In this document: positions 1 through 44,150 of the stretch, piece by piece
How the letters are laid out: each line of letters starts with the position of its first letter
Numbering within the stretch: the stretch's first letter is position 1
From: a virus
Taxonomy: Duplodnaviria; Heunggongvirae; Uroviricota; Caudoviricetes
DNA length: 44,150 bases
Virus record (IMG/VR): IMGVR_UViG_3300045988_004957
Strand: one strand, 5' to 3'
Program-made: the position numbers and the translations under genes
Notes under the pieces: generated by a model
Databases searched by the model: none
What the model saw: the letters and a program-made list of their open reading frames with translations, nothing else
What the model was told of the DNA's origin: nothing

Positions 1-1713
1 ACCGCAGAAACTCACCCTGACGAGTGGGCGATGTTCATCAGGTACGCCGTGAGCGACATCACTGCGATGCGTGAAGTCTTCCATAAGCTGCCGCGTTGGG
101 GTAACTCCGAGTTCGAAGACCGTGTACTGGAACTGGACCAGTTGATTAACGACCGCGGATTTAAGGTTGACGTTGCACTGGCAGAAGCCGCGATTGAAGC
201 CGTGGAGAAGCACAAAGCGCAGCTACAGGAAGAAGCACAGCGCAAATACGGCGGCTCGCTTACTGGTAAAGACTTCCTGCCGATTCTGCGTGAACTTGCA
301 CCAGCGCACCGCATCCACAACGCGCAGAAGTCTACGCTTAACGACCTGTTGGCGGATGATGATTTACCGGACGACGCACGCACGATTATCGAAATGCGCC
401 TCGGGGCCGCGTCCACAGCGTCAACGAAATATAACCCGCTGCTGTTAGGGCGCTCGTCGGACGACCGCCGTCGTGGTTGCATTCAGTACGGCGGAGCCAA
501 GCGTACATTACGATTTGCCGGTAAAGGCTTTCAGCCGCAGAACCTCGCGCGTGGGTACTATCACGATGATGAACTGGATAAAGGTATTTCAGCGTTACTT
601 AAGGGCCGCGCGCATCGCCGTTTCGATGTCGCTAAGCTAACGGCATCGACGGTGCGTAGCTGCATTATCCCGGAAGCCGGAAAAAAGTTTGTCGTCGCCG
701 ATTACTCTAACGTTGAAGGTCGGGGGCTTGCGTGGCTGGCAGGCGAAGAAACCGCGCTAGATACGTTCCGCGCCGGGCTGGACATTTACTGTGTAACCGC
801 GGGTAAGATGTTCGGCATGGAGCCGGATTACATTAAGAAGGAACGCAAAGACTTGCGCCAGATTGGTAAAGCCTGCGAGCTTGGCCTCGGCTACGCTGGT
901 GGTGTTGGCGCTTTCGTTCAGTTTGCTAAGAACCTCGGACTTGACCTTGTTGATATGTCAAAAACAATGGACGGTACTTTCCCGGACCACATCTGGGCGG
1001 CTACCGCACGCGGCTATGAATGGGCACGTATTCAGGAAGCCAAGCGACCGCCGCGACCCGGGGAGAAGGATGACCGACCATCGTATATTCTTGATAAGAA
1101 AGTGTGGCGTACCTGTGACGCTATCAAGCGTATGTGGCGAGAGTCACACCCTGAAACAGTAGCTTTCTGGCGAGATATTGAAGACGCAGCTATGGCCGCT
1201 ATCCGCAATCCAGGTAAAGAGTTCACCGCAGGACCGCGAGGCGTTAAGTTTTCGCGTAACATAGAGACAGACAACAACGGCGACAAAGTCGCGGGCTGGT
1301 GGTTGCGCATGACGTTGCCGTCGGGTCGCGTTATGTCATACCCGGGCGTCGGATTAAGTGTGTCGAAAGAGACAGACGAAGATGGAAAGGTGTCTACTAA
1401 CGTGCGCATCAAGTACCAGGGCGAAAACCAGTTAACCCGGCAGTGGGGCTTCCAGTACACCTACTCTGGTAAACTGGTGGAAAACTGCACTCAGGCGTTG
1501 TGCCGTGATTTGCTGGCCAACGCGCTGCTGAACGTAGAAGCAAACGGTTATCCAATTGTACTTCATGTCCACGATGAGATTATCTGCGAAACTCCAGATA
1601 CGCCGGAATACAATGTCGCAGAGCTTGAGCGATTGATGTGCGAATTACCAGAATGGGCGGAGGGGTTCCCTCTTGTAGCGGAAGGTCAGGAGTTAAAACG
1701 CTATGCTAAGTAA
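1..1713 (+). CDS. DNA polymerase, family A (polymerase domain; 5' end outside window)
   Basis: Frame 1 is open from base 1 with no start in the window; about 570 codons ending TAA 1711-1713; HVHDEIICE-type motif near the C-terminus; N-terminal exonuclease fragment found at the window end. Confidence 0.85.
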   Translation, partial: TAETHPDEWAMFIRYAVSDITAMREVFHKLPRWGNSEFEDRVLELDQLINDRGFKVDVALAEAAIEAVEKHKAQLQEEAQRKYGGSLTGKDFLPILRELAPAHRIHNAQKSTLNDLLADDDLPDDARTIIEMRLGAASTASTKYNPLLLGRSSDDRRRGCIQYGGAKRTLRFAGKGFQPQNLARGYYHDDELDKGISALLKGRAHRRFDVAKLTASTVRSCIIPEAGKKFVVADYSNVEGRGLAWLAGEETALDTFRAGLDIYCVTAGKMFGMEPDYIKKERKDLRQIGKACELGLGYAGGVGAFVQFAKNLGLDLVDMSKTMDGTFPDHIWAATARGYEWARIQEAKRPPRPGEKDDRPSYILDKKVWRTCDAIKRMWRESHPETVAFWRDIEDAAMAAIRNPGKEFTAGPRGVKFSRNIETDNNGDKVAGWWLRMTLPSGRVMSYPGVGLSVSKETDEDGKVSTNVRIKYQGENQLTRQWGFQYTYSGKLVENCTQALCRDLLANALLNVEANGYPIVLHVHDEIICETPDTPEYNVAELERLMCELPEWAEGFPLVAEGQELKRYAK

Positions 1714-14751: not shown

Positions 14752-14792
14752 TCACTTACACCAACGATGTTATCCCAAACAGGAGCTACACC

Positions 14793-14984: not shown

Positions 14985-15021
14985 GCTAGTATAGGACAAA
15001 TCCTAAGCACTAGGAATAAAC

Positions 15022-26137: not shown

Positions 26138-27619
26138 TTACTGCTGAGTGGTGTCCTGTTGCTGCGCCGACTGCGGAATCTCTCCCGCTACCTGAGCAAC
26201 AGAACCCAACGGCAGAGGTGCGTCTTCAATAGCGTTCTGAATGTCCTCATCTGTCCAGTCAGTCACACCTGCCTTGCGCAACGCAGCATAGTAAGCGGTG
26301 GCGGGTAGCAGGCCAGCGTTAATATCCGCCATCCACTGAGCGCGGTCCTGAGCTGTCATAGGTTGCAGGAAGAATTCCATATTCAGCTTGAACTCAATCT
26401 CAGTATCTTCACTAAGCCCAAGCATACCCGCAACCCAGCGCAACGCATCGGTATACGCCATGCTTACATTACGTGCTATTGTTGCCATGACTGACGTGTC
26501 GGCGCCGCGTTGCAGGCGGGCCGATTCCGCGGTGATTTGCTGCGTCGGGGTGATAAGCTGCGCGCCAATCTGGATGGCCTGATTCTCTTTATCCAGCATA
26601 TTCTGTTTGGCGAGGTTAGTTTCCGCCGCCTGAACCAGAAACGCATTTCCGCCGGAGCCGATGTTGTGGCCTGAACGCGACCCCATGCGTATGCCGTGTG
26701 GGTTGGCTTCTTTCCACTGCTCCATGCTCATGTTCTCGCCGGGGGCAATGAACAGTGTCGGTTGACCTACTATAAAGCTGGCCTCTTCCACATCGGCCGA
26801 ATTTCTGAAGTGTCCTATATTTAGCTCAGCTAACGGCAGTAAAGGCGCATCGTCTATAGTGGCGTCGTTGTTGCTTGCGCCAATGAACGTGAACGGGATT
26901 TTACCGCGCAACTGTTCGCCGAGTTCCGGGAAGATTTCGATTACTTCATCCTGTGCGCCACCTTCGGCATCGAAGCGGTAGATGCGCTGGCGGTAGCGAC
27001 CGTCAATCAGGTCAAGGACGCGGTATTGCTCGCCGAATTTTGTTTCAAACTCAGCGCCTGGTTCCGAGTATTCCCATGCCTCACGCAATACAACCATCGT
27101 CACGCGGTTCACTGAACCGATGCGGGTGAGTCTCCAGTTGATAATGTTCTCCGCGGTATAGAATGCGATTACCGGGTTTAATAATCCCGCGTTCTGCTCT
27201 GCCGCCGTTGCTGCGGCTGTTTCCGGGGCGTCCACCAGCAACCCGCCACGGCCTATCGAGTTAATCTCCATCAGCGTATCCTGCGCGTGCTGCCACAGCC
27301 CGACACCTGAACCGTCAGCGTTGTGCAACAGGTACTCAAGTTCAGGCGGGATAATCTGCTCAGGGTCTTTGCGCATCACTGACCCCGTCATCCCCGCCAG
27401 CGTGCGTTTGGTGAAATTGTAGCAGATAGCGCCGTTCTCGTATTCTTCCTGTCGCTGTGCTGCGTAGGTCTGGTCAGGCTCGTTCTTCCCGACGTTGCGC
27501 AGATAGCGGATAAGGTCGCCTTCAAGAGCGTGGCGTACCTTCTGCCATTTATCGAAGTGATGCAGCCATTCCCGGTGTTTTGTCTTAACACCCTGATTCT
27601 GACCGTTCATAGTTAACAT
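26138..27619 (-). CDS. portal protein
   Basis: 493 aa acidic ORF between terminase large subunit and head morphogenesis gene. Confidence 0.65.
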   Translation of the reverse strand: MLTMNGQNQGVKTKHREWLHHFDKWQKVRHALEGDLIRYLRNVGKNEPDQTYAAQRQEEYENGAICYNFTKRTLAGMTGSVMRKDPEQIIPPELEYLLHNADGSGVGLWQHAQDTLMEINSIGRGGLLVDAPETAAATAAEQNAGLLNPVIAFYTAENIINWRLTRIGSVNRVTMVVLREAWEYSEPGAEFETKFGEQYRVLDLIDGRYRQRIYRFDAEGGAQDEVIEIFPELGEQLRGKIPFTFIGASNNDATIDDAPLLPLAELNIGHFRNSADVEEASFIVGQPTLFIAPGENMSMEQWKEANPHGIRMGSRSGHNIGSGGNAFLVQAAETNLAKQNMLDKENQAIQIGAQLITPTQQITAESARLQRGADTSVMATIARNVSMAYTDALRWVAGMLGLSEDTEIEFKLNMEFFLQPMTAQDRAQWMADINAGLLPATAYYAALRKAGVTDWTDEDIQNAIEDAPLPLGSVAQVAGEIPQSAQQQDTTQQ

Positions 27620-27631
27620 TGAATAATCCTC

Positions 27632-28903
27632 TTAAAGTGCGAAAGTCACCGGGACGTTAATAACTGGTTTGCGAATCGGCATTTCATACGCGATAGGGTA
27701 TGTGGTTCCATCATTCTGGTGGTCCACACCGCCTGATTTATCCGGTTCGCCGTTCTTGTCGTAAGCCTGTTGCTCCAGGCATCGTGCGGTAACAGGGCAA
27801 GCCTGTTCATTAATCATGACCATACCAGATTCAAGCGCCTTATTCATCGCCGCTACGCGGTCTTTAACCGGTGGGTTTGTCGATTTAGCGCGCACTTCGA
27901 AGCCGGCCTGCTGTAACTGGGCAATATCAGATGTGCTGGCGTTGTTACTTTTACGGTTTTTACCGCTTGCGTCGGGGTACATAACGATATAGTGGCCCTT
28001 ACTTTTCCAGCGCTCTGTTACGGCTCTCACCACATCGGGCGTATCGAACATATCCACCAACTCGGCGACTGCATGCCAGACTTTGCCACGTTGCACGTAA
28101 ACTGTACTAGCCATGTGGCCTACGTTAAAGTCCTGCCCGATATACAGAGTCTCGCCTGGTTTTATCGTTTCGCGGCTGCTGTTTTTCCTGCGGTCATAGG
28201 CGTAATAGACAGTCCCCGCCGTCAGGTTGACGAACTCGCCGTTGATGTAGGCGTCAATCAACTGACCTGGGTATGTGTCGCGTAACGACTGCACATAATC
28301 TTCTGGCAGGAACGGGTTAGACAGGGTGGACGCCTGAATCATCTCGTAGCCTGGATTCTTTTTGACTACCCAGCGGTCATGTACGAAACGGAATCCTTCC
28401 GGGGTAGTGAACACGGAAACGGTATTAGCAGGTTTCGGTGTAATAGGTTTATATGTCCGCGGCAACTGGCGGTTACGGGCGATGACTTTGTTCCACGCGT
28501 GCTCGGCGTGCTCCATGTTAAGGGTGTCCAACTCGTCGATTTTCGCACGAAACGATTCGTAGCCAACGATTCGTGCTGGATTATCAAGTGTACGCAGAAC
28601 AAAATCCCCAAATTGTCCGGAAGACGTATAGATTATGTTGTCAGACTTGTTGTATTTGTACCGGATACCCCAGTCGGTGAGCTTTTCTTCCATACGCGGT
28701 GCAAGGATGAGGCGCACCAGGTCATAAGTCGGCTCATACATGGCGATGATAGAATCGCTACCACCTTCCATGCTGTCGAGTAGTGCAGAGTTGCACATAA
28801 CTTCGGATTTACCCGTACCGAAGCCAGCTACGAATGCCGGAAACTTGCAATGCATACCGAGAAACGCGCCTTGCGGCTCCGTTGCCGTGATATTAACGTT
28901 CAC
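27632..28903 (-). CDS. terminase large subunit
   Basis: Walker A GFGTGKS near N-terminus, C-terminal nuclease-like half; 423 aa. Confidence 0.85.
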   Translation of the reverse strand: MNVNITATEPQGAFLGMHCKFPAFVAGFGTGKSEVMCNSALLDSMEGGSDSIIAMYEPTYDLVRLILAPRMEEKLTDWGIRYKYNKSDNIIYTSSGQFGDFVLRTLDNPARIVGYESFRAKIDELDTLNMEHAEHAWNKVIARNRQLPRTYKPITPKPANTVSVFTTPEGFRFVHDRWVVKKNPGYEMIQASTLSNPFLPEDYVQSLRDTYPGQLIDAYINGEFVNLTAGTVYYAYDRRKNSSRETIKPGETLYIGQDFNVGHMASTVYVQRGKVWHAVAELVDMFDTPDVVRAVTERWKSKGHYIVMYPDASGKNRKSNNASTSDIAQLQQAGFEVRAKSTNPPVKDRVAAMNKALESGMVMINEQACPVTARCLEQQAYDKNGEPDKSGGVDHQNDGTTYPIAYEMPIRKPVINVPVTFAL

Positions 28904-29402
28904 CGGACACCACCTTAATTGTTACTTCGCTGATTGGCTCGTCGCGTACTTCTTCGGCGACAACTGTTTTATTCAGGCCCAGTTTCGCGGCAGCAAACGT
29001 AGCAGAGATGCCCGCGGCCCCCGTTTCAGTGAAGTATGCCTCTTCCAGCGCCTGTGCTGTCTCCCAGGCTTCTGCAAATGCGGGAATCTCACGCAGCCAA
29101 AGCTTAATAATCGGGATAGTGACTCCGATGTGTAAGGCGAAGCGGGCCAGTGACGGTGGTTTATCCTGAATCAGCGGGCGTTCGTCACCCTTAGACGTAG
29201 GCACAAGCTCCCACGACGTGCGGTCGAAGAACTCGATTAGTGCATCGCAATAGCCCGGGTCCCACAACGCGGCGGAATTACGGGATGATTGATAAAGGCT
29301 CTGTTTACCGCGCGGTCGTTTACGGCGACGGTTTGCGCTAACAGCTTCTTTATGCGCAGCTTGCACCACCTCTGGTGATGGTTGCTTAAGTGTAAGTTTC
29401 AT
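28893..29402 (-). CDS. putative terminase small subunit
   Basis: ORF overlapping terminase large start; start taken at ATG 29402 with SD AGGGGG; basic N-terminal region. Confidence 0.45.
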   Translation of the reverse strand: MKLTLKQPSPEVVQAAHKEAVSANRRRKRPRGKQSLYQSSRNSAALWDPGYCDALIEFFDRTSWELVPTSKGDERPLIQDKPPSLARFALHIGVTIPIIKLWLREIPAFAEAWETAQALEEAYFTETGAAGISATFAAAKLGLNKTVVAEEVRDEPISEVTIKVVSGER

Positions 29403-29500
29403 ATAACCCCCTGACATATGCGTCTGACCATCAGAGCGCACCAGACGCGCCCTACGCGTCTAAAGGGATTATATAAGGGGATTGGGCGGGATGTACAGAA

Positions 29501-32248: not shown

Positions 32249-32778
32249 AAAGCACCTTCCCGTAATTTATGGTTCGCGAAAACCCCGTGTATCTTCTCTC
32301 TAGCTTCTTCGGCAACTAGCGCGGCTAGTTCTAGGTCCGCAAAGTATCCGTAAAAATACTTAATCTTATGTATTTTTAATTGAACGTACCATCCTCCTTG
32401 TTGCTTCTGCCACATAACGTTCTTAATACCGGATTTGCTGTCCTTTCTTGGCCCTTTGTTGCATCCGTTTTCGGATTTGTTGGCTTCACGTAAATTACAG
32501 AATCTATTATCACGACCATCGCCGTTTATGTGGTCTATTAGGGAGTTGGGCCATTCCCCTGTCATGTATAGCCAAGCGAGACGATGCGCCAAGTACCGCT
32601 TCCCACCGAAGGCTATGGAGCGATAGCCTGCACAATGGTTGGCGCCAGCCTCACTTCCCGCCCGAGCATTGTGCACACGTGTAGCTTTCCATGTAAAAAC
32701 TCCGGTATCGGGGTCGTAGTGTAAAACCTCGCGCAGCTTATCTGCGGTAAGTCCATTATCTGAAATGTTTCGAGACAC
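32245..32778 (-). CDS. HNH endonuclease
   Basis: HNH core LIDHINGDGRDNRFCNLREA..N; start taken at GTG 32778 with SD GGAGGA; ATGA coupling to endolysin. Confidence 0.75.
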   Translation of the reverse strand: MSRNISDNGLTADKLREVLHYDPDTGVFTWKATRVHNARAGSEAGANHCAGYRSIAFGGKRYLAHRLAWLYMTGEWPNSLIDHINGDGRDNRFCNLREANKSENGCNKGPRKDSKSGIKNVMWQKQQGGWYVQLKIHKIKYFYGYFADLELAALVAEEAREKIHGVFANHKLREGAL

Positions 32779-33028
32779 GCTTATGTCCTCCGTACGACAG
32801 CCACGCCTGACGAATCTGGCGCAGCGCAACTAAAGTGATTAATGTTTCCGGCAGCGTCGGTGACATGCTGCCTTGTAACAGGTGGATACAACCTGCGGCG
32901 CAGACAATAGCAGTGAGGATATACAGCACACGACCAAACAGACCGTCGTCTACGCTGGGGTGGTATACGTTAAACAGCGATGTGCCCCCGATTGCGAGCA
33001 TACCGCAAAACCAGAATAACTCATTCAT
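32756..33028 (-). CDS. two-TM membrane protein (holin-associated)
   Basis: ATG 33028 overlapping holin stop; two hydrophobic helices. Confidence 0.45.
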   Translation of the reverse strand: MNELFWFCGMLAIGGTSLFNVYHPSVDDGLFGRVLYILTAIVCAAGCIHLLQGSMSPTLPETLITLVALRQIRQAWLSYGGHKRVSKHFR

Positions 33029-33329
33029 TACCACCTCCGCGGCGTGCGATATATTCTCCGGCGACAATGCCAGAGAGACGGGAATAAATTGGCATCCAGA
33101 GAATAGCAATGATGAATCCAAGGCCCGCTATTTCGCGTTCACCTGCGATACCGAACCATTGAGCGGCGAGAGGCGCACCGAATACGGCGCACGCAAAGCC
33201 AGTGGCGAGAAAACAGAGAGCATCGACAGGGCCGGTAATAGTGGCTTTGTGTTGCCGTAAGCCTATTACCCCACCAGCTAATGCGGCAGCGAGAAGCCAC
33301 CCCGTCACTGTTTCAGTAAATTTATCCAA
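33021..33329 (-). CDS. putative holin
   Basis: 102 aa with TM helices and charged C-terminus, first gene of lysis cassette; start codon is TTG. Confidence 0.5.
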   Translation of the reverse strand: MDKFTETVTGWLLAAALAGGVIGLRQHKATITGPVDALCFLATGFACAVFGAPLAAQWFGIAGEREIAGLGFIIAILWMPIYSRLSGIVAGEYIARRGGGNE

Positions 33330-33375
33330 GATGAAGCCACCCCGTCACTGTTTCAGTAAATTTATCCAAGATGAA
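33293..33375. repeat. 40-bp tandem direct repeat (2 copies) across the holin start
   Basis: 33293..33332 identical to 33333..33372, next 3 nt also repeat. Confidence 0.9.
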
Positions 33376-33444
33376 TCCTCCAGGTGCGTATTAAGTATGC
33401 AGTAACTGGAGGATAGCACGGTTAGGAATTATCTTAATAACGGT

Positions 33445-33742
33445 TTATTTATGACGCCAGATGTATTGTCGTCTCTGCGGTTTAGTCGGAATATCATCGT
33501 ATCCGAGCGATTTCCAGTAATTAAATAACCGATTAGCGATTGCCGCGCGTTCCTGTGTTTTAAACTCTCCTAGATTCACGGCCTTTCCGTTCTGGAATCC
33601 ACAGGCGCGGATAGCTTTACGCCGTTCTTGTATCTCTGGGTACAGCACGTTACGGCGACGCTTGTGTATACGTGTCTTCGCTCTCGGTGACAGCGGCGCA
33701 AGGCCGCTTCGTTTCAGGATGTCAGTTGCTAACGACATCACT
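33445..33742 (-). CDS. hypothetical protein
   Basis: Start taken at ATG 33742; basic 98 aa ORF. Confidence 0.4.
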
Positions 33743-33940
33743 CCACCCCTCCACATGTGTAACCGACCCACAGTTCGCGCACTCGACGTAATCAGGGTAC
33801 TGGTCTTTGTATTTCTGTAACTCAGCTTCAAGTTCCTGCAGTTTAAAATCAAGGTTCTGGTAATCCTCAAATTTAACCCACTCCCCATTACGGTCGATGA
33901 AATGGTTATCCGACCCATATTTAGAATATCTTGCCACCAT
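33722..33940 (-). CDS. hypothetical protein
   Basis: Start ATG 33940 with SD AGGAGAAG; CxxC near C-terminus. Confidence 0.45.
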   Translation of the reverse strand: MVARYSKYGSDNHFIDRNGEWVKFEDYQNLDFKLQELEAELQKYKDQYPDYVECANCGSVTHVEGWSDVVSN

Positions 33941-33942
33941 AA

Positions 33943-34146
33943 TCACTTCTCCTGTTTTCCAAGTCGCTTAGGTGAGCAGATAGCGCGTACCTCTGAATCG
34001 TTGGGCTTGTCGCCCTGAAACAGGAAGTGCGCGTTCTCTGCGGCGCGTGCCGCTGACTGGCACGCCTCCATCGAGTAAAACGTTTCTGATGCCGCTAGTT
34101 GCATCTGGCCCGCCGACAATACCCAGATAAATAAGATGCTGGTCAT
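33943..34146 (-). CDS. small secreted-like protein
   Basis: ATG 34146 (ATGA coupling); hydrophobic N-terminal signal-like segment. Confidence 0.4.
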   Translation of the reverse strand: MTSILFIWVLSAGQMQLAASETFYSMEACQSAARAAENAHFLFQGDKPNDSEVRAICSPKRLGKQEK

Positions 34147-34676
34147 TGCTTCGCCTCCACACCACATTTACGGCAATACGGAACACCAGGTCTATTGCCA
34201 AAAACCGTCTTACATCTCCACTCATGCTCACATTCCTGAGTATCGTTTTTCGGTTTATATACCTTGTCGTCCCACTCACGTTTACCACATTTAGAGCAAA
34301 GCTCACTACCAGGAACGTTGTTCGGATTGCCTTCGCTGAGAAACAACCCAGGCATAATAATCCAAGAGTGCTCGCATTCCTGAACGTCTTCCTTACGGCA
34401 ACCGGATTGCTCGGGTCCGTGTTCGCCTGCTACGTAGCTCTTCCCATTAGGCAGTGGGCCGCCGTGGTTGGTTACACGGTAGAAGTCCTCATTCATTAAC
34501 GTTATTGTCCCCAGTAGCTCATCCACCAGCGCCGAAGCATCACGTAACTGATTCTTTAGTGACTGCACCTCATGCGCCAGGTCTTCGCACCGGTTGTTAT
34601 TTACCTGCTGCCGTAGCTGGTCAATCAGGTACTCGAATACTTCGTTTTTATTGTTCACTCTGTCTCCCCCCCTCAC
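34143..34676 (-). CDS. Cys/His-rich hypothetical protein (zinc-ribbon-like repeats)
   Basis: Two internal repeats QECEH.W ... C.KCG; coiled-coil N-terminus; real start may be GTG 34658. Confidence 0.5.
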   Translation of the reverse strand: MRGGDRVNNKNEVFEYLIDQLRQQVNNNRCEDLAHEVQSLKNQLRDASALVDELLGTITLMNEDFYRVTNHGGPLPNGKSYVAGEHGPEQSGCRKEDVQECEHSWIIMPGLFLSEGNPNNVPGSELCSKCGKREWDDKVYKPKNDTQECEHEWRCKTVFGNRPGVPYCRKCGVEAKQ

Positions 34677-34955
34677 TTATTCAACAGCACCTGTTATTGC
34701 TATAAGCCCGGTGTTACCGCGGCGGCGATACTTACGAATCACCGTTTTAAGCTCTTCATTGCTACTCTGATGCCCGAAAGTTATAGGCAACTCCCCCCCG
34801 CCGGCCATACCAAACTCAGTAGCTATTGGCTTGTCTCGCCACCCCTGGATGAACCCGTTACTGTCACGCGTTATGTATCTGTAGTTGTTGGGGAGGGGCA
34901 ACTCCAGCCCCTCAAAATCAACAGTCACGGTGTAGCTGCTAAAATTCATAGTCAA
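34677..34955 (-). CDS. hypothetical protein
   Basis: ORF-track start is TTG; ATG at 34949 more likely. Confidence 0.45.
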   Translation of the reverse strand: MTMNFSSYTVTVDFEGLELPLPNNYRYITRDSNGFIQGWRDKPIATEFGMAGGGELPITFGHQSSNEELKTVIRKYRRRGNTGLIAITGAVE

Positions 34956-35088
34956 TTACCCCGAACTCATTGATGATTTGAGCCTTGTAGAAGTTGCCGT
35001 TTGAGGCCAGGTGATATGCCTGCGCCATAGTCATCTCACGGTAAGTTGCTGCGCTGTTTTCAAACTCCATAATCATCAAAGTAACCAT
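34939..35088 (-). CDS. hypothetical protein (49 aa)
   Basis: ATG 35088 with SD GGAGAGG, first ORF downstream of promoter site 3. Confidence 0.35.
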   Translation of the reverse strand: MVTLMIMEFENSAATYREMTMAQAYHLASNGNFYKAQIINEFGVIDYEF

Positions 35089-35118
35089 CTCTGCCTCTCC
35101 TCTCGTTTGTGTAAATGA

Positions 35119-35147
35119 ATAGTAGACTATTCTATCCCAGTGTGCAA
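35119..35147 (-). promoter_or_regulatory. sigma70-like promoter with embedded dyad (site 3)
   Basis: Minus strand TTGCAC-17 bp-TACTAT; perfect dyad AATAGT-AG-ACTATT at 35118..35131. Confidence 0.5.
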
Positions 35148-35283
35148 GTAAATTTTATTGGTGTCTGTTATTGTTGCATCTCCTGCAATAGTCGCTTCGA
35201 TTGTTGCGTTTCGTGCAAGTGTCGCCTTTTGACGACACTAAGCTAAAGTTGTACGCTGCTGTGTAGCAGCGTAAGTCACTCAG

Positions 35284-35457
35284 TCAATTAGTAACCTTTT
35301 GACCTGTTACACCACCTGTTATACCCGCCCTTGCTTGCACACCAGCTTTCCACGCCCGCCACGCAAGACGCGTCTTAACGTTCAGGTACTCTTTCTTCGA
35401 ACCCTTGTTAACCGGCAGCCCCTCGACGATGGCCCATCGTTCAAATGCTTCTCTCAT
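35284..35457 (-). CDS. hypothetical protein
   Basis: Start taken at ATG 35457; basic. Confidence 0.35.
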   Translation of the reverse strand: MREAFERWAIVEGLPVNKGSKKEYLNVKTRLAWRAWKAGVQARAGITGGVTGQKVTN

Positions 35458-35508
35458 ACCAACCCCCACAACGCGTGCGCCACATAAACGGCGCTGACAA
35501 TTAAAATG

Positions 35509-35745
35509 TTATCCACGGCAACCTCCCTCAGAGTCGTCGGCACGAGCATCATGATTAGATGCCGTTGTGTATACCTTCGCTTCTGCCTTAGTTACCGGGA
35601 TTGTGTATCTTCCTGTCTTAATCCACCAGCCATCCTCACAGGAATCCAGTACATTGAAAACATCACCCACATTTACGCCTATTTTCTCGAGAGTATCACC
35701 ATCTTCTTCGTAGATAACGGTGTTATCTGTAATTATGATTTGCAT
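35509..35745 (-). CDS. hypothetical protein
   Basis: ATG 35745 overlapping upstream stop; acidic 78 aa. Confidence 0.45.
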   Translation of the reverse strand: MQIIITDNTVIYEEDGDTLEKIGVNVGDVFNVLDSCEDGWWIKTGRYTIPVTKAEAKVYTTASNHDARADDSEGGCRG

Positions 35746-35936
35746 CACTTCACCCCTTTGAATTTAAAATTGTTGCCGATGAGTGTTAAATTATCTCTGA
35801 AAGCGTAACCATGTTTCTTTCGTACAAGACCCCATACGTCTACAGCGGTACTATATTCATCCTCATTCTGGGTAACTATTACGTACTGTCCGCCGCGTTT
35901 TGTTTTAACCAACTGACCCTTCTTAAACATAACCAT
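35745..35936 (-). CDS. hypothetical protein
   Basis: Small basic ORF, SD AGAGGAG. Confidence 0.45.
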   Translation of the reverse strand: MVMFKKGQLVKTKRGGQYVIVTQNEDEYSTAVDVWGLVRKKHGYAFRDNLTLIGNNFKFKGVK

Positions 35937-35948
35937 CACTCCTCTGTC

Positions 35949-36167
35949 TTATTTAAAGTAGATAGCAAATTTCTTGTAACCCGCTGGCTCGTTACGAAGT
36001 CCTTTACCGTTAGCGAAACGTTGTACGTTAACAAAATCATTTTCATCCATTCCGTCGGTGTCGAACGTAAAGAAGTTGCGCTTGTTCCCGATAATTACGC
36101 GCTCTGAGATATCGATGCCGTAAACTTCTTTGATTGCGGAAACTACGCTTGCGGTCGCTTTGTTCAT
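35949..36167 (-). CDS. hypothetical protein
   Basis: 72 aa, first gene after promoter site 4; SD AAGGAA. Confidence 0.45.
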   Translation of the reverse strand: MNKATASVVSAIKEVYGIDISERVIIGNKRNFFTFDTDGMDENDFVNVQRFANGKGLRNEPAGYKKFAIYFK

Positions 36168-36201
36168 TTCTAAATTCCTTATGTCTCGTTCCGATAAGTG
36201 A

Positions 36202-36230
36202 ATAGTATCCTATTATGTTGGGGTGTGCAA
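36202..36230 (-). promoter_or_regulatory. sigma70-like promoter with embedded dyad (site 4)
   Basis: Minus strand TTGCACACCCCAACATAATAGGATACTAT; dyad at 36201..36214. Confidence 0.55.
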
Positions 36231-36396
36231 GATAATAGTTACGTTGCCGTTGTGATTCTTTTGTTTCTTTAAAGAGTACGCAACGCAGCGGGTGGGCTAA
36301 AGCCCACCCCAGCGGAGTGAAGTACTCTCTACCTTGCTTACGGCAACTATAGAAACTTTTAATTATTAGTGACTTGGGTTATTTAGACGGGATTTA

Positions 36397-36539
36397 CAAT
36401 AGATTATGGCCCTTCCGAATGCAGGCAGCGACACTACACTCAGTGCTGACGCACCGCTCCGTTTCCTGCCGCACCGCGGTCGCTTGTTCATACTTCACAA
36501 GCTCAGGTGGAGCTTAGCACATTTCTTAGTAAAAGTCAA
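36397..36539. repeat. dispersed ~145-bp non-coding repeat, copy B
   Basis: Paralogue of 24066..24208; identical 43-bp block at 36474..36516. Confidence 0.9.
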
Positions 36540-36646
36540 TACCATTAGCATCTTTTGTATATTAGTAACTTTGTGTGGTGTTTTGGTTGCTTTTACATTC
36601 ACGCTATCCTATACTCGTTTTCACCAAACAAACAGGAGATATAAAA

Positions 36647-36829
36647 ATGCAGCATTACATGACACAGAATGAAGTGGCTGAACGTATCGGGGTGACACGT
36701 CAAACAATTAATAACTGGTTGCGCAGCGGTAAATTCCCTGATTGCTGTATTAAGGTTATGGGTCGCCGTTTACCAGGAACATTTGACCGTAATAAAGTTG
36801 AAGCATGGATTAAGGAGAACGTGAAATGA
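36647..36829 (+). CDS. AlpA/excisionase-like HTH DNA-binding protein
   Basis: 60 aa from ATG 36647 (SD CAGGAG); GKFP ... W pattern of AlpA-type HTH proteins. Confidence 0.55.
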   Translation: MQHYMTQNEVAERIGVTRQTINNWLRSGKFPDCCIKVMGRRLPGTFDRNKVEAWIKENVK

Positions 36830-37038
36830 TTGGGCGTATGGGTTGTTACTTTGAAAACTGTAAAGTTAAATACTGGTTTAAGTTTGCGTCGGAAATTACT
36901 GACAGCGGATTCTATGCGGAAATATGTAAGCCTAATCATTTGTTGGAACCGACACGCATTATTAAGATGCCAATCGAGGCTTTAAGTAAGTGTCGTTTCT
37001 ACGCTTCGGAGCGTGCGTGGATTGCGGGCGTTAAGTAA
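36826..37038 (+). CDS. hypothetical protein
   Basis: 70 aa, ATGA coupling to upstream gene. Confidence 0.45.
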   Translation: MIGRMGCYFENCKVKYWFKFASEITDSGFYAEICKPNHLLEPTRIIKMPIEALSKCRFYASERAWIAGVK

Positions 37039-37106
37039 AAGAAACCCCAACGCCAGAACGTCGGGGCTAAAGTACAAATCATCAAAGTAAGCATAAGGAT
37101 TATACA

Positions 37107-37235
37107 ATGACAAAGTTAATAGTTCCACAGCTACGCCGCCAGAAACACGGCGCTGACTTCTTCGCACCGGTAAAGATGAACCGCGCAATGCGCCGTATGC
37201 AGGAAGCCTTAGAACGTGCGGAGAAAAAGAAATGA
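37107..37235 (+). CDS. hypothetical protein (42 aa)
   Basis: ATG 37107 with SD AAGGA; basic; stop overlaps next start. Confidence 0.35.
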   Translation: MTKLIVPQLRRQKHGADFFAPVKMNRAMRRMQEALERAEKKK

Positions 37236-39484
37236 ATATTGTTTTTGCAACGCTGCGCAACACATTCGATAAAAACCCTGTAGCGCGTGAGATGCCGCTC
37301 GAGCAGTTTGTGGAGTATGTCTGCGATACATCGAAGCGTTTATCCGTGGATCCGTCGTGGTCTAAGGAAGAGTACGACGCTGCCAAGATTAAGCAGAAAG
37401 CTATTGCGCCTGTTGGGGGTCGCCGTAAAAACGCTATCCTGGAAGACAGTGTGGTTAAGTTCGATTTTGACCATCTCAACCGTACTCAGTACCGCGACCT
37501 TACCCGCAAATTCAAGAACGCACCGTTCTTCAATATTCTGCATACAACGGCATCGCATCAGCATGTGTGTAAAAACGGTGATTACGCCTTCCGCGTTCTG
37601 GTTCCGGCTCGCACGCCGTTTAACTCTAACGACGCGTGGATGGTCCAACGGGCTATTTGTGCAGAGTTAGAAATAGATGAAGCCTTGCGTGACCACTGCA
37701 CGGAAGACGGCAACCGCCTTATCTATCTGCCACATAGAGAGTCAAAGATAACGGTTACAGAAGGGCGTGTTATCCGTGCCGAGCGGTACATCAAGAAAGC
37801 CGAAGAGATGGGGTTGAGTAAACGTGAAGTTAAGACACTTGCCGCCGATGAGTATGGGCTTAACGCTGATATAGCGCATTTCTGCGAAGCCGAGCTTGGC
37901 CTTGACGCTTTATCTTCCGGGCGCGGGTACGAAGTCCCATGCCCTAACGAACATCTGCATACAGGCAAAGGCTCCACAAGCATCATGCTTGATGGTAAAG
38001 AAGTGCGCTTTGTGTGCCAGCATACAAACAACGGCGCTTGCACCGAGCTTAACCGCCGACAGCATTTGGCCCTGCGTATGTGCGGCCTGCCAGACGAGCT
38101 TAACGTAGACAAGCAACCTATCAGTATTAACAGCATTCGTGCGGCTCTGCCTGATTTACCGGATGAAGAGATTGAAGAACTGCACCGCACAGAGAACGAG
38201 GAGCCTGTAACTTGCACGCTGGAAGACCTTGAAGAAGAGGACGAGTTACCAGAACCGGTAAAGGCTGATTTCGTCGTTGAGGGGTACATGCCGTCGGATT
38301 GTATCTGGGATATTGTCGGGGAATCCGGCACGTACAAATCATTCTATACGCTGGGGATGATGTACCTGAGCGCCGCCGGGTACCGGTTTGCGGGGGCTGA
38401 CACCCAACGTTGCCACCATTTCTATATTGACGGCGAGGGTGGTGCAGCTACACGAACACGTATTGATGCACTCGCGGCTAAATATGGCGAGGAAGGTAAA
38501 GATTATGTACATGTCATCGATATGGGCGAAATACTCGCTACGCATGGTGATAAAAAAATTCCAGCTCTAATCCACAGGATGCGCGAAACCGCAGGGGATG
38601 AACCTATTGGCATGGTTGCCTTCGACACCCTTAACCAGACGCTGGCCCTGACGATTGATAAGTTCGACGAGAACAGTTCATCAACAGCAATCGGCATGGG
38701 TAAAGTTATCGCCATCCTGAAAGAAGTACGCGATGCAACTAAAGCCGCAGTAGGCGTTGTCCACCATACGCCGAAGGGTGGAAAGAAAGCACGCGGCAGT
38801 GGGGCGCTGTATGCGGGTGTTGACGTGGAACTGACAATCGAACGTGCAACCGACCGTCAGATAAACGTATATCACTCGAAATTCAAGCACGGTCCGCAAC
38901 AGAAGACGGTTGGCATGGTACTGGAGTCTGTACAGTTCCGTGAAGCACCGCCGCCGAAAGAGTACCGCGCGGTTGAGTTCCTCGGTAGCACAGAGGAATA
39001 CGGCACAATAGTAAACCTCGACCTGCCTGAGCCGCACAAGGCGCTTGTATTGATGCCGTGGGGCTTCGAGCCATTCAAGACCGACGAGGAGAAAGAGAGG
39101 GAAGAAGGGTTAACTAACGAAGGTAAACAAAATGTACGTAAAACCATAGAGAACGCCGTCAACAGTTCCGAGGCCACGATACTCGCGGCGTTTGAACTGG
39201 CGGAGGGGACCTACAACGGCAACGAGGGCATCACGGTATCCGCAGCGAATAAGCTCGCGCAGTCTGACCCCAACGCAAAGGCGTTTAACTCCAAAGAAGC
39301 CATAGAACGCGGGAAGATTAAGAAAATGGTTGAGGCTGGGTATCTTGTTCCGGGTACTGACGAAAACAATCAGATAATCCCAGGCCGTTACAGACTGAAC
39401 ACCATGATAACAGATAACAAGATTCCGAAGACAATATACGAACCGAATGAAATGCTGACAGTGACCGAGGAGGATTTGGAATGA
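37232..39484 (+). CDS. DNA primase / helicase
   Basis: 750 aa: Cys/His cluster CPNEHLH...C, Walker A-like GESGTYKS and Walker B VAFD in a RecA-like C-terminal half. Confidence 0.65.
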   Translation: MNIVFATLRNTFDKNPVAREMPLEQFVEYVCDTSKRLSVDPSWSKEEYDAAKIKQKAIAPVGGRRKNAILEDSVVKFDFDHLNRTQYRDLTRKFKNAPFFNILHTTASHQHVCKNGDYAFRVLVPARTPFNSNDAWMVQRAICAELEIDEALRDHCTEDGNRLIYLPHRESKITVTEGRVIRAERYIKKAEEMGLSKREVKTLAADEYGLNADIAHFCEAELGLDALSSGRGYEVPCPNEHLHTGKGSTSIMLDGKEVRFVCQHTNNGACTELNRRQHLALRMCGLPDELNVDKQPISINSIRAALPDLPDEEIEELHRTENEEPVTCTLEDLEEEDELPEPVKADFVVEGYMPSDCIWDIVGESGTYKSFYTLGMMYLSAAGYRFAGADTQRCHHFYIDGEGGAATRTRIDALAAKYGEEGKDYVHVIDMGEILATHGDKKIPALIHRMRETAGDEPIGMVAFDTLNQTLALTIDKFDENSSSTAIGMGKVIAILKEVRDATKAAVGVVHHTPKGGKKARGSGALYAGVDVELTIERATDRQINVYHSKFKHGPQQKTVGMVLESVQFREAPPPKEYRAVEFLGSTEEYGTIVNLDLPEPHKALVLMPWGFEPFKTDEEKEREEGLTNEGKQNVRKTIENAVNSSEATILAAFELAEGTYNGNEGITVSAANKLAQSDPNAKAFNSKEAIERGKIKKMVEAGYLVPGTDENNQIIPGRYRLNTMITDNKIPKTIYEPNEMLTVTEEDLE

Positions 39485-39795
39485 ATATTTACGATTTTAT
39501 AGATAACCCGTTTAAAGCAGTGAAGGCAGGATACCGCCCGTCATACCTGACATGTGTTTCCGCTGTAAGCAACAACTGGTGGACTTTTTGTGTGTATGCA
39601 GCGGGGATTTTTGCGGAGTTTAAAGACATTTTAGACATGACGCTGGCAGAGATTATAAAGTGCCTTTTCAAATTAATTATATCGATAACTATTGTTATAA
39701 GTTTTCCTGTAAGTGCGTGGTTTCTCGCCTGGATTCAGTACCTGAACGTGCAACACACTATTAAGAATTTGGAAGAACTCGATAAGTTGCTATAA
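39481..39795 (+). CDS. hypothetical membrane protein
   Basis: ATGA coupling with primase-helicase; two hydrophobic helices. Confidence 0.45.
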   Translation: MNIYDFIDNPFKAVKAGYRPSYLTCVSAVSNNWWTFCVYAAGIFAEFKDILDMTLAEIIKCLFKLIISITIVISFPVSAWFLAWIQYLNVQHTIKNLEELDKLL

Positions 39796-39800
39796 AAAGA

Positions 39801-39820
39801 AAGGGGCTTTAAGCCCCTTC
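39801..39820. terminator. bidirectional hairpin terminator
   Basis: AAGGGGCTT-T-AAGCCCCTT between convergent genes; overlaps 3' end of XRE gene. Confidence 0.6.
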
Positions 39821-40024
39821 ACCTAACGCCAGCCACTTGGCGTCTACTTCCAGAACTTCCGCCAGTTTGAACAGCGTTGCCGGGCGGACGTCCTGAGTTA
39901 CTCCAAGTGCCAGTTGGTTAATCGCGCCCTGGGAAACGCCGGTCAGGGCCGCCAAACGGCGCTGGGAGATGCCGAGTTCTTTACGGCGTTGTTCTACACG
40001 GATACCTAGTTCAGATGGTTGCAT
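39809..40024 (-). CDS. XRE-family HTH transcriptional regulator
   Basis: HTH signature LGISQRRLAALTGVSQGAINQLALG; SD AAGGAG; divergent from replication operon. Confidence 0.7.
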   Translation of the reverse strand: MQPSELGIRVEQRRKELGISQRRLAALTGVSQGAINQLALGVTQDVRPATLFKLAEVLEVDAKWLALGEGA

Positions 40025-40044
40025 GTCAATTACTCCTTAGTCAG

Positions 40045-40117
40045 TTGATATGTGAATAGTACCATATTAATTATTTTAGAAAAGCCCATTGACATGTGAA
40101 TAGTTCGCTATTATAGT
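40045..40117 (+). promoter_or_regulatory. two tandem promoters with dyad operators (sites 5 and 6)
   Basis: TTGATA-17 bp-TAATTA (weak -10) and TTGACA-17 bp-TATAGT; dyads at 40055..40068 and 40099..40112. Confidence 0.55.
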
Positions 40118-40145
40118 TAGCCCATACCAAACGAGAGGGGCGGAT

Positions 40146-40373
40146 ATGAACACAATAACGGGAGCCATAGCTAAAGGTTTTCTAGCAATTTTCGGAGAAT
40201 CGCAGGAAGTGTGCACAAAACATAAATTTGTACTTTCTTGCGTAGTCGGGGACGAGTTTGATGGGTTCGATAAACTTGTTGTCTGCGACCATTGCGGGCA
40301 AGAAGCTATTCAACACCCAAACGGTAAATTTGAATTAATAGACGATAGCCTTACAGAAGGCGACGGCGAGTAA
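40146..40373 (+). CDS. hypothetical protein (CxxC-containing)
   Basis: 75 aa, first gene after switch promoters; CDHCG motif; SD GAGAGGGG. Confidence 0.45.
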   Translation: MNTITGAIAKGFLAIFGESQEVCTKHKFVLSCVVGDEFDGFDKLVVCDHCGQEAIQHPNGKFELIDDSLTEGDGE

Positions 40374-40397
40374 CCCAAATAAACAGGAGAATAAATA

Positions 40398-40916
40398 ATG
40401 TTAGAGAAATTCTTAGTATTACTGGAACGTTTCGTAGTTGCGCATGAACTGATTGCTGCGAACAGTGCACGCCGTACTGAACTGCCGAAGGCTATCACGG
40501 CGCCATATGGTAAAGACGTCGACAGTGGTGTCGCAGAAACTGCAACAATCACGCCTACTGTTGTAAAAGAAGAAACAAAAGAAATCCCGGTCGAGGGTGA
40601 AGACGTAGTTGACACTAAACCGGCAGAAGAAGAGAAGCCGAAACGCAAGCCGCGTAAAGCTAAAGTAGAGGAACCTGCGCCAGAACCGGAAGAAGAGAAA
40701 GAAGAAGTCGATTACAAGTCTCTGCGTGACCAGATTCAGGCCATCGACGATGCAATTAATGAAGGTCCTAGCGATGCCGCGTGCGATGATTCTGATGAAC
40801 TGCTGGAAGAGTTCACAGGTAAGAAGATGAAGATTGCCGCGATTAAAGACGAAGACCTGGTTGAGTACCTGGAACGCCTGACAGCAATCAAGAACAAGTA
40901 TTTCGAAGAAGAATAA
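40398..40916 (+). CDS. acidic hypothetical protein
   Basis: 172 aa with Glu/Asp-rich C-terminal half and a basic KPKRKPRKAK patch; strong SD. Confidence 0.5.
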   Translation: MLEKFLVLLERFVVAHELIAANSARRTELPKAITAPYGKDVDSGVAETATITPTVVKEETKEIPVEGEDVVDTKPAEEEKPKRKPRKAKVEEPAPEPEEEKEEVDYKSLRDQIQAIDDAINEGPSDAACDDSDELLEEFTGKKMKIAAIKDEDLVEYLERLTAIKNKYFEEE

Positions 40917-40923
40917 CTATCTC

Positions 40924-40942
40924 GCGGCCTTCGGGCCGCTTT
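40924..40942 (+). terminator. intra-operon hairpin attenuator
   Basis: GCGGCC-TTCG-GGCCGC followed by TTTAACT. Confidence 0.45.
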
Positions 40943-40959
40943 AACTGAGGGTCGGAATT

Positions 40960-41232
40960 ATGATTTACCAACTCTACCGAGCCGTCGACAGGCGGGATAA
41001 CACAGAGGCGCTATGGCTATTGCGTGCTCCGTCCGGTGCGCACCAGATGGAAGAGATGGCGTACTTAGGAAAAGTACCACGGCCTAAAGATATAGGCCGT
41101 CACGTGTCACAGATTAAGCGCACAACTTTCGCCAAGCCTGACTTTTATGTCTTCGAGTCTATGTATGGGTGGGCCATGCACTGCGACCATAAGACACGAC
41201 ATTTAATTGACCAGTGGGAGAACAGGGTATGA
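40960..41232 (+). CDS. hypothetical protein
   Basis: 90 aa ORF, SD GAGGG. Confidence 0.45.
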   Translation: MIYQLYRAVDRRDNTEALWLLRAPSGAHQMEEMAYLGKVPRPKDIGRHVSQIKRTTFAKPDFYVFESMYGWAMHCDHKTRHLIDQWENRV

Positions 41233-41486
41233 ATTGGGTTAGCGTAAACGAAGCACTACCAGAGTCAAAAGATGATTCTGTTTTAGTTTGCTCAGTAGAC
41301 GGAAGTAAATGCGACGATAATGGGTTCCCGGAAGGCGGAATTGATTTTGTGCATATACAGGACTATTTCGACGACATTACTGCTGGGCTGGATGAAAACG
41401 GAAATCAGTTATATACGAAACGGTATATCGAGATGGGTATAACACACTGGATGTATTTACCAGAACTACCGGAGGAGGCTAAATAA
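41229..41486 (+). CDS. DUF551-like protein
   Basis: C-terminal ITHWMYLPELP motif; start taken at ATG 41229 (ATGA coupling). Confidence 0.45.
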   Translation: MNWVSVNEALPESKDDSVLVCSVDGSKCDDNGFPEGGIDFVHIQDYFDDITAGLDENGNQLYTKRYIEMGITHWMYLPELPEEAK

Positions 41487-42727
41487 TGATTCTAAAAGAA
41501 CGAGGCGGCAATAATGATGTACACGCCTTACTGTCGCCGTCAGGCGCTAAAAAGTGGCTGAGTTGTGCCGCATCGTTGGCCTGTGAAAAAGATATTCCTA
41601 ATACGTCGGGTAAAGCCGCGGTATTAGGCACAGCAATGCACACCATAGCAGAGATGCACCTTAACCAGTACATCAAAGGCACTGCGTTGCCGTTAGAGCG
41701 TGAAGTTGGAGCTTACGTGCTGGATGAAGGCAAAGGCCAGATTAAGGCACTAATCAGTCCGATGAAAGGCGCGGTACTGATTACGGCTGACATGATTGAG
41801 CAGGTGCGTAAGTACACCGACTACTGCAAAGCGCTTATCGACGTAGCGACTTACGCCAAGCTGGAAATGCGTGTCAATCTTACTGAGGTATTGCATCCGG
41901 GGTATGAAGGCGTTGAGACGTTCGGAACCGCTGACCTCGTTGCTGTCCAGGAACTGGCAAACACCGACGAGCACATGCTCATTATCGGCGACCTGAAAAC
42001 CGGGCGGCATCGCGTCGAAGCGAAAGAAAACAAGCAGCTTATGCTTTACGCTCTCGGTGTTTATCGCCGACTCAAGAGACGTTATAACATAACAGTTGTT
42101 CGTCTGGTAATCTTCCAGCCGTACACTGGCGGCGCGTCGGAGTGGGACATCTCGGTTGAAGGTATGGAGCTGTTCGCTAAGTTCGCACAGAAACGCGCAC
42201 TGTTAGCGCTTGATGCTTATCACCGTGGCAAGAAGAACCTGAAAGCGTCAGACTTCAAGCCGTCGGTTGATGGTTGTCAGTGGTGCCGGTTCTCTGAACA
42301 GTGCGTCGCGCGTACAAAGACGGTTAACTCTGTGCTGGCGGAAGAACTGGAGGACGACTTTGCCCTGGAACTTACGCCGGAGCAACTCGTAGCTGAGTAT
42401 GAGAAGTTGCCGTTGTTGCGCCAGCACATCGACAAGGTTGAGAAAGCGATGGCTGCCGCGTTGCATTCCGGTAAGAAAGTGCCGGGGTACAAGCTGGTTG
42501 AAGGCCGCCCGGGTAATCGTGCGTGGAAAGATGCAGAGAAAGTGGCTGGCAAGTATGGCATAGCGCTAATGAAGCAAGTGCTCATGACGCCAACCGAAGC
42601 GGTTAAAGTTGTGCCTGAAGATGAACTGAAAGACTTCATTACACGTAAGCCAGGCGCACCATGTGTCGCAACGGCAGATGACAAACGTCCTGAGTGGAAT
42701 CAGGTTACAGAGGAGGATTTAGAATGA
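41486..42727 (+). CDS. PD-(D/E)XK nuclease, Cas4/RecB-like
   Basis: Core D ... IGDLKTG ... QLMLYALG plus C-terminal Cys cluster CQWCRFSEQC typical of Cas4-like Fe-S exonucleases. Confidence 0.55.
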   Translation: MILKERGGNNDVHALLSPSGAKKWLSCAASLACEKDIPNTSGKAAVLGTAMHTIAEMHLNQYIKGTALPLEREVGAYVLDEGKGQIKALISPMKGAVLITADMIEQVRKYTDYCKALIDVATYAKLEMRVNLTEVLHPGYEGVETFGTADLVAVQELANTDEHMLIIGDLKTGRHRVEAKENKQLMLYALGVYRRLKRRYNITVVRLVIFQPYTGGASEWDISVEGMELFAKFAQKRALLALDAYHRGKKNLKASDFKPSVDGCQWCRFSEQCVARTKTVNSVLAEELEDDFALELTPEQLVAEYEKLPLLRQHIDKVEKAMAAALHSGKKVPGYKLVEGRPGNRAWKDAEKVAGKYGIALMKQVLMTPTEAVKVVPEDELKDFITRKPGAPCVATADDKRPEWNQVTEEDLE

Positions 42728-42927
42728 TTCAAGTAAATGAAATGCCGACTGATAAAGATTTTTTGATGGTATGGCGCTGGGATGGGTATCTACACTCGGA
42801 ATCGTTCACGTTCTTGAACGGTACCATGATGCGATACGACCCTGTAGAGGATGAGTTCGAACCGGCCGATATGCTTAATTTCGAGAACATAATCCCTATT
42901 GCAAAATTTTATTTGACACCTGAATAG
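42724..42927 (+). CDS. hypothetical protein
   Basis: ATG 42724 overlapping nuclease stop (ATGA); 67 aa. Confidence 0.45.
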   Translation: MIQVNEMPTDKDFLMVWRWDGYLHSESFTFLNGTMMRYDPVEDEFEPADMLNFENIIPIAKFYLTPE

Positions 42928-42941
42928 TTAGCTATTATAGT
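42913..42941 (+). promoter_or_regulatory. sigma70-like promoter with embedded dyad (site 7)
   Basis: TTGACA-17 bp-TATAGT; dyad 42923..42936 in spacer; overlaps 3' end of upstream ORF. Confidence 0.55.
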
Positions 42942-43000
42942 TCTAATCACTGACCGGGCAGCTTCCCGGAGTAAACGAAACTTAAAAGCGAGAAATTAAG

Positions 43001-43627
43001 ATGGGTATTAAACTGAATCTGCGTAAAGTAAACACTGCTTGGGTTAACGTATTTGAACGTGAAAAAGACCGTGAAAACGATGATGGCTCAATCACTAAAG
43101 GCCAGTACAGCGCGACTATCATCCTGCCGTCTGACCATGCTCAAATCGATGCACTCTACGACACCGTTTACGCTGTAGTTGAAGAAGCGTTAGGCGCAGC
43201 CGCTGCCGAGAAATGGATGAAGTCCAACTACGGTGAAGGTAAGCACATGGATAAATGCGCGATTAAAGACATTGCCGAGCGCGACAATCCGTTTGAAGAC
43301 TTCCCGGAAGGCTTCTACTTCAAAGCGAAGGCACAGAAACAGCCGCTGATTGTAACCTCTAAAAAAGGTGAGACTCAGGTAGAGCAGGACTTCAACGTAG
43401 ACGGCGAACAGATTGAAGGTGAACAGGTTTACAGCGGATGCTTAGCTAACGTAAGCGTTGAAATCTGGTTCAGCCAGAAATACAAAGTCCTCGGCGTTAA
43501 CCTGCTGGCGATTAAATACGTTGGCGAAGGCAAAGCGTTCGGCGGTTCTAAAGTCGCCGCGAGCGTCAATGACCTGGAAGATGACGAAGAAGATGAAGCA
43601 CCGCGCCGTGAACGTCGTCGCCGCTAA
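43001..43627 (+). CDS. putative ssDNA-binding protein (DUF2815-like)
   Basis: 208 aa with acidic Arg-rich tail; sits between Cas4-like nuclease and DNA polymerase. Confidence 0.45.
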   Translation: MGIKLNLRKVNTAWVNVFEREKDRENDDGSITKGQYSATIILPSDHAQIDALYDTVYAVVEEALGAAAAEKWMKSNYGEGKHMDKCAIKDIAERDNPFEDFPEGFYFKAKAQKQPLIVTSKKGETQVEQDFNVDGEQIEGEQVYSGCLANVSVEIWFSQKYKVLGVNLLAIKYVGEGKAFGGSKVAASVNDLEDDEEDEAPRRERRRR

Positions 43628-43647
43628 TATCTGAATCAATTTTAACT

Positions 43648-43670
43648 AAGGCCCTTCATTGGGCCTTTTT
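43648..43670 (+). terminator. rho-independent terminator / attenuator
   Basis: AAGGCCC-TTCATT-GGGCCTT followed by TTTTTAC. Confidence 0.6.
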
Positions 43671-43687
43671 ACTAGGGGTCAAAAATA

Positions 43688-44150
43688 ATGAGTTACCTGT
43701 TCTTAGACTTTGAAACATTCTCAGAAGCCGATTTGAAGAAAGTCGGTTCTTACGCTTACGCCGAACACCCGTCAACCGAAGTGCTTATCTGTACATATGC
43801 TTTTGACGACGAACCTGTGCGGGTATGGGATTGCACCGACGGCAGCGACATGCCGGGGGATTTACACCGCGCACTGCGCCGCCTTGTTAAGCCCAACAGC
43901 CGCATCAAGATGGTGTGGCACAACGGTGGACTTTTCGATCGCCTAATCATGAAACACTGCTGGGACTTTGATATTCCGGTAAGTAACACCATTGATACTA
44001 TGATTTGGGCGTTCCGTCACGCGCTGCCGGGTTCTCTTGATGCGCTGTGCGAAGTGCTGGGCGTGTCTGCAGACAACGCGAAAGATAAACGCGGCAAGGC
44101 TCTGATTAAGCGTTTCTCTAAACCGACGCCGAAGAACTACAAAATCCGCC
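43688..44150 (+). CDS. DNA polymerase family A, N-terminal 3'-5' exonuclease domain (3' end outside window)
   Basis: ATG 43688; Exo I-like motif LFLDFETFS; frame still open at window end. Confidence 0.8.
   Translation, partial: MSYLFLDFETFSEADLKKVGSYAYAEHPSTEVLICTYAFDDEPVRVWDCTDGSDMPGDLHRALRRLVKPNSRIKMVWHNGGLFDRLIMKHCWDFDIPVSNTIDTMIWAFRHALPGSLDALCEVLGVSADNAKDKRGKALIKRFSKPTPKNYKIR

Follow-up and report, generated by a model that had tools for sequence, protein, structure and literature searches.

The present analysis concerns the two ends of a 44,150-nt phage record, referred to at its full length as the window, which hold the two parts of a DNA polymerase gene on the plus strand. The 5′ fragment (43688..44150) starts with the ATG at 43688-43690, the same start as in the polymerases of phages Bas74, Bas73, NTEC3, and K1G, and its frame remains open to 44150, giving 463 nt, or 154 codons plus the first base of codon 155. 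The 3′ fragment (1..1713) is open in frame 1 from base 1 to a TAA at 1711-1713 and supplies 570 codons, numbers 157-726, plus the stop. A sequence-only reading of the same DNA had described both frames as open at the window ends, which translation confirmed, and had stated that joining the ends directly brings in an early stop; when base 44150 is joined straight to base 1 the product reads YKIR-HRRNSP-stop, with the stop six codons past the junction. The junction point itself (44150..44150, plus strand) is where a circle would be 5 nt short, between base 44150 and base 1. Comparison of window suffixes with window prefixes gave no match at any length from 1 to 199 nt, and none of the repeat families in the window touches its ends; with no shared repeat and a 5-nt gap lying in coding sequence, the ends have the character of neither direct terminal repeats nor cohesive ends.

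Directly upstream of the polymerase gene is a gene for a Gp2.5/Enc34-type ssDNA-binding protein (43001..43627, plus strand; Pfam Enc34_ssDNA-bd, E=4e-16), and in every fetched relative with this ssb gene (neighbourhoods in 8 assemblies) it is followed by an intact polymerase gene. A promoter-like repeat, consisting of TTGACA, 17 nt with ATAG..CTAT, and TATAGT, occurs at 2319-2352, 40089-40122, and 42913-42946, with a weaker copy at 27585-27618. One copy lies about 55 nt upstream of the ssb gene, and the ssb and polymerase genes may share this putative promoter. A scan of 43400-44150 for promoters and terminators returned nothing; by eye, a hairpin (GGCCC...GGGCC) with a T-run was spotted at about 43649-43672, falling just short of the scan rules. 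On the other side of the polymerase gene, several relatives carry immediately after it a gene of 231 aa (at 4995-5690 in locus L001, and in L009, L011, and L012), annotated as endonuclease VII in two BASEL phages; the window (about 1703-2070) and other relatives lack it, a pattern of presence and absence typical of a mobile endonuclease gene.

Both fragments belong to a single gene and adjoin each other in it, since they match consecutive positions of the PHROG 17 DNA polymerase profile, the end fragment at 670-789 (E=4e-26) and the start fragment at 802-1232 (E=1e-106). Family A polymerases are recognized by motifs A (DYSxxE), B (RxxxKxxxxGxxYG), and C (HDE), and all three are found in the translation of the start fragment, as DYSNVE (in VVADYSNVEGR), RQIGKACELGLGYAGG, and HVHDE (in VLHVHDEII). 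The rebuilt protein, with its missing bases restored as described below, exceeded the Pfam DNA_pol_A cut-off over residues 371-470 (58.3 bits against 34.3) and matched 69 family-A polymerase sequences in PDB at E<=0.01, with Taq, Bst, and Klenow aligning at about residues 371-484. The exonuclease match was fainter, DNA_pol_A_exo1 scoring 22.0 bits against a cut-off of 23.6 (E=1.6e-4) over residues 60-186, with plausible exonuclease motifs at DFE (7-9), HNGGLFD (78-84; NGGLFD 79-84), and YAVSD (172-176, encoded by nt 43-57), the last of which would fit Exo III. The cut falls between residues 154 and 157, within the predicted exonuclease region, which agrees with the earlier placement of the window's end inside the exonuclease domain of a family-A polymerase. 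The accompanying claim that the window begins in the polymerase domain needs correction: it begins in the last part of the putative 3′-5′ exonuclease domain, because the Pfam exonuclease match reaches residue 186 of the rebuilt protein and YAVSD lies at nt 43-57.

How much is missing between the ends could be read from relatives, by finding where the terminal 24-30 nt from either end of the window lie in each of 16 of them (5 GenBank phages, 2 IMG/VR contigs, 1 metagenome contig, and 8 ENA or Logan contigs). In 16 of 16 the gap between the window's last and first bases was exactly 5 nt within one open reading frame, the polymerase frame was single and intact, and the 5 nt together with the final C of the window encoded Arg-Tyr. 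The missing bases were GCTAC in 13 relatives, GCTAT in two, and GTTAC in one; with GCTAC, the final C of the window gives CGC TAC, or Arg155-Tyr156. Thirteen assemblies whose 24-nt flanks on each side are identical to those of the window continue straight through the junction. An exact search for the end-plus-start pattern found two relatives in IMG/VR, both reading through the junction, one among JGI/ENA metagenome contigs, and none among GTDB genomes. Adding GCTAC to the window yields an open reading frame of 2181 nt and 726 aa with no internal stop, the same length as the polymerase gene of Bas74, Bas73, NTEC3, and K1G, where the window by itself holds 463 + 1713 = 2176 nt; the rebuilt protein is 99.0% identical to that of Bas74, 98.9% to Bas73, 98.8% to NTEC3, and 97.5% to K1G. 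When 700 nt from each end were joined and compared with GenBank phages, 313 records matched, 282 of them with at least 80% of the query covered, and the best gave one unbroken alignment within a gene annotated as DNA polymerase, led by Escherichia phage SonjaBuckley_Bas74 at 98.4%. The joined query corresponds to 1404 nt in relatives rather than 1405 because the relatives have a 59-nt spacer between ssb and the polymerase gene, 1 nt shorter than the 60-nt spacer of the window. The ends are adjacent, then, with exactly 5 nt absent, and the gene rebuilt from them is intact. Across the junction, with these bases restored, a closed circle would read ...ATCCGCCGCTACACCGCAG..., and its predicted junction sequence is ...AAAATCCGCCGCTACACCGCAGAAA...

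The window represents the complete genome of a virulent siphovirus of E. coli that belongs to the Kagunavirus group (Guernseyvirinae). It is collinear with NTEC3 and K1G, with matches at 90-96% identity, set against an ICTV genus guideline of approximately 70% genome-wide nucleotide similarity, and its length of 44.15 kb and full gene order correspond to those of complete relatives of 41-45.5 kb. Compared with the circular record OR594183 (44,517 nt), 42,771 of the 44,150 nt (97%) aligned with order kept at 86-98% identity, window position 1 falling at 28874 and position 44150 at 28880 of that record. This collinearity indicates that the window lacks no other sequence and contains none of foreign origin, i.e. 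that it is one full turn of the genome minus 5 nt. Four segments of the window have no counterpart in OR594183 (32233-32688, 34148-34522, 35467-35742, and 41236-41485), reflecting mosaicism in the lysis and early-gene regions. OR594183 (locus L016, vB_EcoM_SHAK7858) is labelled Autographiviridae and Kayfunavirus and named as a myovirus though it is collinear with the Kagunavirus-type window, and its taxonomic label looks wrong. No GenBank phage record was identical to the window, the best reaching about 96%; over its first 25 kb it is 96.1% identical to vB_EcoS-22664BS2, and window positions 3610-14056 are matched at 100% identity by a Logan contig (SRR2565850_2551). The phage belongs to a well-known group, Kagunavirus, as a new isolate or variant, and its polymerase is an ordinary member of the group's family-A polymerases. 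Scans of the window for tRNAs and against Rfam were both empty. Two copies of an intergenic segment of about 145 nt, at 24066-24208 and 36397-36539, lie 12.3 kb apart with about 88-90% identity and may be a duplicated regulatory region.

How the DNA of this phage is packaged bears on where an assembly of it might be opened. The terminase large subunit (27632..28903, minus strand) was recognized by PHROG and carries T4/P22-type N- and C-terminal domains, Pfam Terminase_6N and Terminase_6C, each at about E=1e-11; a candidate small subunit lies at 28893..29441 on the same strand (PHROG 3064 'terminase', E=6.5e-73). By these domains and published TerL trees the large subunit is of the type associated with headful packaging, while a sequence comparison with PDB structures found no homologue. 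TerL proteins of K1G-like phages cluster beside those of headful packagers (PMC5582158), the Kagunavirus fBC-Eco01 gave no termini by PhageTerm at 651x coverage (PMC9825357), and PhageTerm, restriction profile, and PFGE showed K47, of the sister genus Jerseyvirus, to be headful (PMC10783031). By analogy with these relatives, for which it is documented, the phage in the window probably packages by the headful mechanism as well. With headful packaging the virion DNA would be circularly permuted, and assemblies would close into a circle with no natural start and be opened at an arbitrary point. Among public assemblies, the full-length contigs of relatives start at many different positions and genes, and contig ends that fall within genes have been described for other assembled phage genomes (PMC9409062).

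The split, out-of-frame polymerase is very probably a linearization or closure artefact of a circular genome that was opened in the polymerase gene with loss of 5 nt. The assembly would have been opened, or would have failed to close, inside this gene, the bases GCTAC (Arg155-Tyr156) being lost at the opening; the phage itself would carry one uninterrupted family-A polymerase of 726 aa with a predicted N-terminal 3′-5′ exonuclease, split only in the linear record. The most likely technical cause would be a small hole in read coverage, on either side of which an otherwise circular assembly path would stop, leaving a linear contig; a single such hole would place both window ends at one site. Faulty or excessive trimming during circularization is a possible alternative cause. 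The original interpretation, one circularly permuted genome cut in the polymerase gene, agrees with this account on each point apart from the domain in which the window starts: complete circular Kagunavirus genomes are collinear with the window and have its ends 5 nt apart, and the short segment suspected to be missing amounts to 5 nt exactly (GCTAC in the closest relatives). The finding named as speaking against it had been unrelated or host DNA at a window end, but both ends are polymerase and 5,426 complete E. coli genomes are without a match; the prediction of packaging strategy from the terminase, also proposed at that stage, leads through the Terminase_6N/6C architecture of TerL to the type found in headful packagers.

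A second assembly breaks at the same site. Two MEGAHIT contigs of the ENA assembly ERZ27304706, found by exact-protein look-up (loci L017, L019, and L020), represent the same phage. The first, k141_46506 (32,805 nt; window 3-32807), terminates at window position 3, and the 16,651 nt fetched from it match window 3-16653 with 100% identity; the second, k141_55196 (11,376 nt), corresponds to window 32715-44131 and differs from it by two indels only. At the polymerase junction these contigs leave a gap of 26 nt, their ends stopping 2 and 19 nt short of those of the window, and they break once more near 32.7-32.8 kb, where they overlap by 93 nt. The break at the same spot points to a local hole in read coverage. 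An assembler that requires k-mers to be seen at least twice would stop slightly earlier, which would give the shorter ends of ERZ27304706, and the uneven shortfalls fit better with coverage tapering to nothing than with a pile-up of reads at a fixed DNA end. Of the partial polymerase products, that of 570 aa had no exact counterpart on record and that of 569 aa was recorded for just one contig, which gives no sign that many independent samples share the break. One IMG/VR locus (L005) had appeared to be a further break 59 nt from the junction and was rejected, the position being the edge of a stored piece and not a contig end.

An alternative explanation could be that the window ends are real physical ends of DNA in the sample, either a fixed terminus (for example a cos site whose short 3′ overhang was removed in library preparation) or a site-specific cleavage in the polymerase gene, e.g. 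by the homing endonuclease of a co-infecting relative. We regard this as very unlikely. It draws on the ERZ27304706 contigs, which also stop 2 and 19 nt from the ends of the window, and two assemblies breaking at one place could indicate a real physical end if the read sets are independent; it also draws on the 231-aa gene, annotated as endonuclease VII in two BASEL phages, that some relatives carry after the polymerase gene and the window does not. The site nevertheless lies inside a polymerase frame that is intact in all relatives, the 13 assemblies with identical 24-nt flanks cross the junction, the TerL is of the headful type and relatives are without fixed termini, the MEGAHIT contig ends are ragged (2 and 19 nt short) and not a sharp pile-up, and the endonuclease insertion site is 1.7 kb away from the break. 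A real site-specific double-strand end within the polymerase gene, made by the homing endonuclease of a co-occurring relative or representing an unrecognized fixed terminus, is slightly harder still to credit; if true, it would account for the ends of two assembly records lying only a few bases apart.

Less probable again is that the window is a piece of some larger molecule, such as a prophage, a concatemer, or a chimeric contig, whose ends are not neighbours. We found no point in support of this. The window has the size and full gene order of complete relatives, on which its ends map 5 nt apart, and it carries neither an integrase nor host genes at its ends; the lack of any match in complete E. 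coli genomes further indicates that it is not a prophage with host flanks. Least probable of all is a circular genome that is truly 5 nt short, i.e. a frameshifted, polymerase-defective variant whose record happened to be opened exactly at the deletion, for which there is nothing beyond the missing bases themselves and the presence in the window of other unusual differences (the 40-nt duplication and the C7 run described below), and against which stand the need for an arbitrary cut point to coincide with a deletion to the base, the intact polymerase frame and conserved Arg-Tyr in 16 of 16 relatives, and the ENA contigs, which end at the site instead of crossing a deletion. A programmed frameshift, an intein, and a naturally split polymerase were all rejected because the frame is continuous in all relatives and the missing piece is only 5 nt.

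There are other places where the sequence of the window departs from that of its relatives. A perfect tandem duplication of 40 nt (2.1 copies) occupies 33293-33372, with the repeat extending to 33375, and covers the TTG start and first 12 codons of a holin-like gene of 102 aa (33021-33329, minus strand). As a result the upstream duplicate is now a 15-codon frame ending in TAA, and the intact holin-like frame starts 40 nt further from its GGAGG ribosome-binding site. The 40-nt unit is single-copy in 19 of 19 relatives covering the region, including the near-identical k141_55196, from which the duplication is absent. This unique duplication is another sign of imperfect sequence, and in origin it may be either an assembly artefact or a real variant affecting the timing of lysis. 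In addition, a homopolymer between two minus-strand genes, at about 34665-34671 in an apparent ribosome-binding region, has seven C residues in the window (C7) against six in the ENA contig (C6).

The importance of a closure artefact at the polymerase gene is one of data quality only, with no new biology. The true genome would be the window plus GCTAC, a circle of approximately 44,155 nt, or approximately 44,115 nt if the 40-nt duplication is also an artefact. Annotation of the linear record as it stands would give two polymerase fragments or a pseudogene, and checks of completeness or circularity based on terminal repeats would call the contig linear.

Compared with known systems, the window shares gene order and size with the Kagunavirus phages SonjaBuckley_Bas74 (PQ850627), GertrudWoker_Bas73, NTEC3, vB_EcoS-22664BS2, and K1G, from which it differs by mosaic changes in the early-gene region. 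In the records of these phages the polymerase gene is uninterrupted and the 40-nt tandem duplication is absent, whereas the window is opened in the gene, is 5 nt short, and contains the duplication. With family-A polymerases of the Klenow and T7 gp5 type the rebuilt enzyme has in common motifs A, B, and C and candidate exonuclease-like motifs, but it is distant from them in sequence, matching only at about residues 371-484 and with an exonuclease profile under the Pfam cut-off. Finally, de Bruijn assemblers usually leave an overlap of k-mer length at the ends of circular assemblies, 77 bp in one reported case (PMC9409062); unlike such assemblies of headful phages, the window has ends with no overlap and is 5 nt short, which suggests that closure failed or that trimming was excessive.
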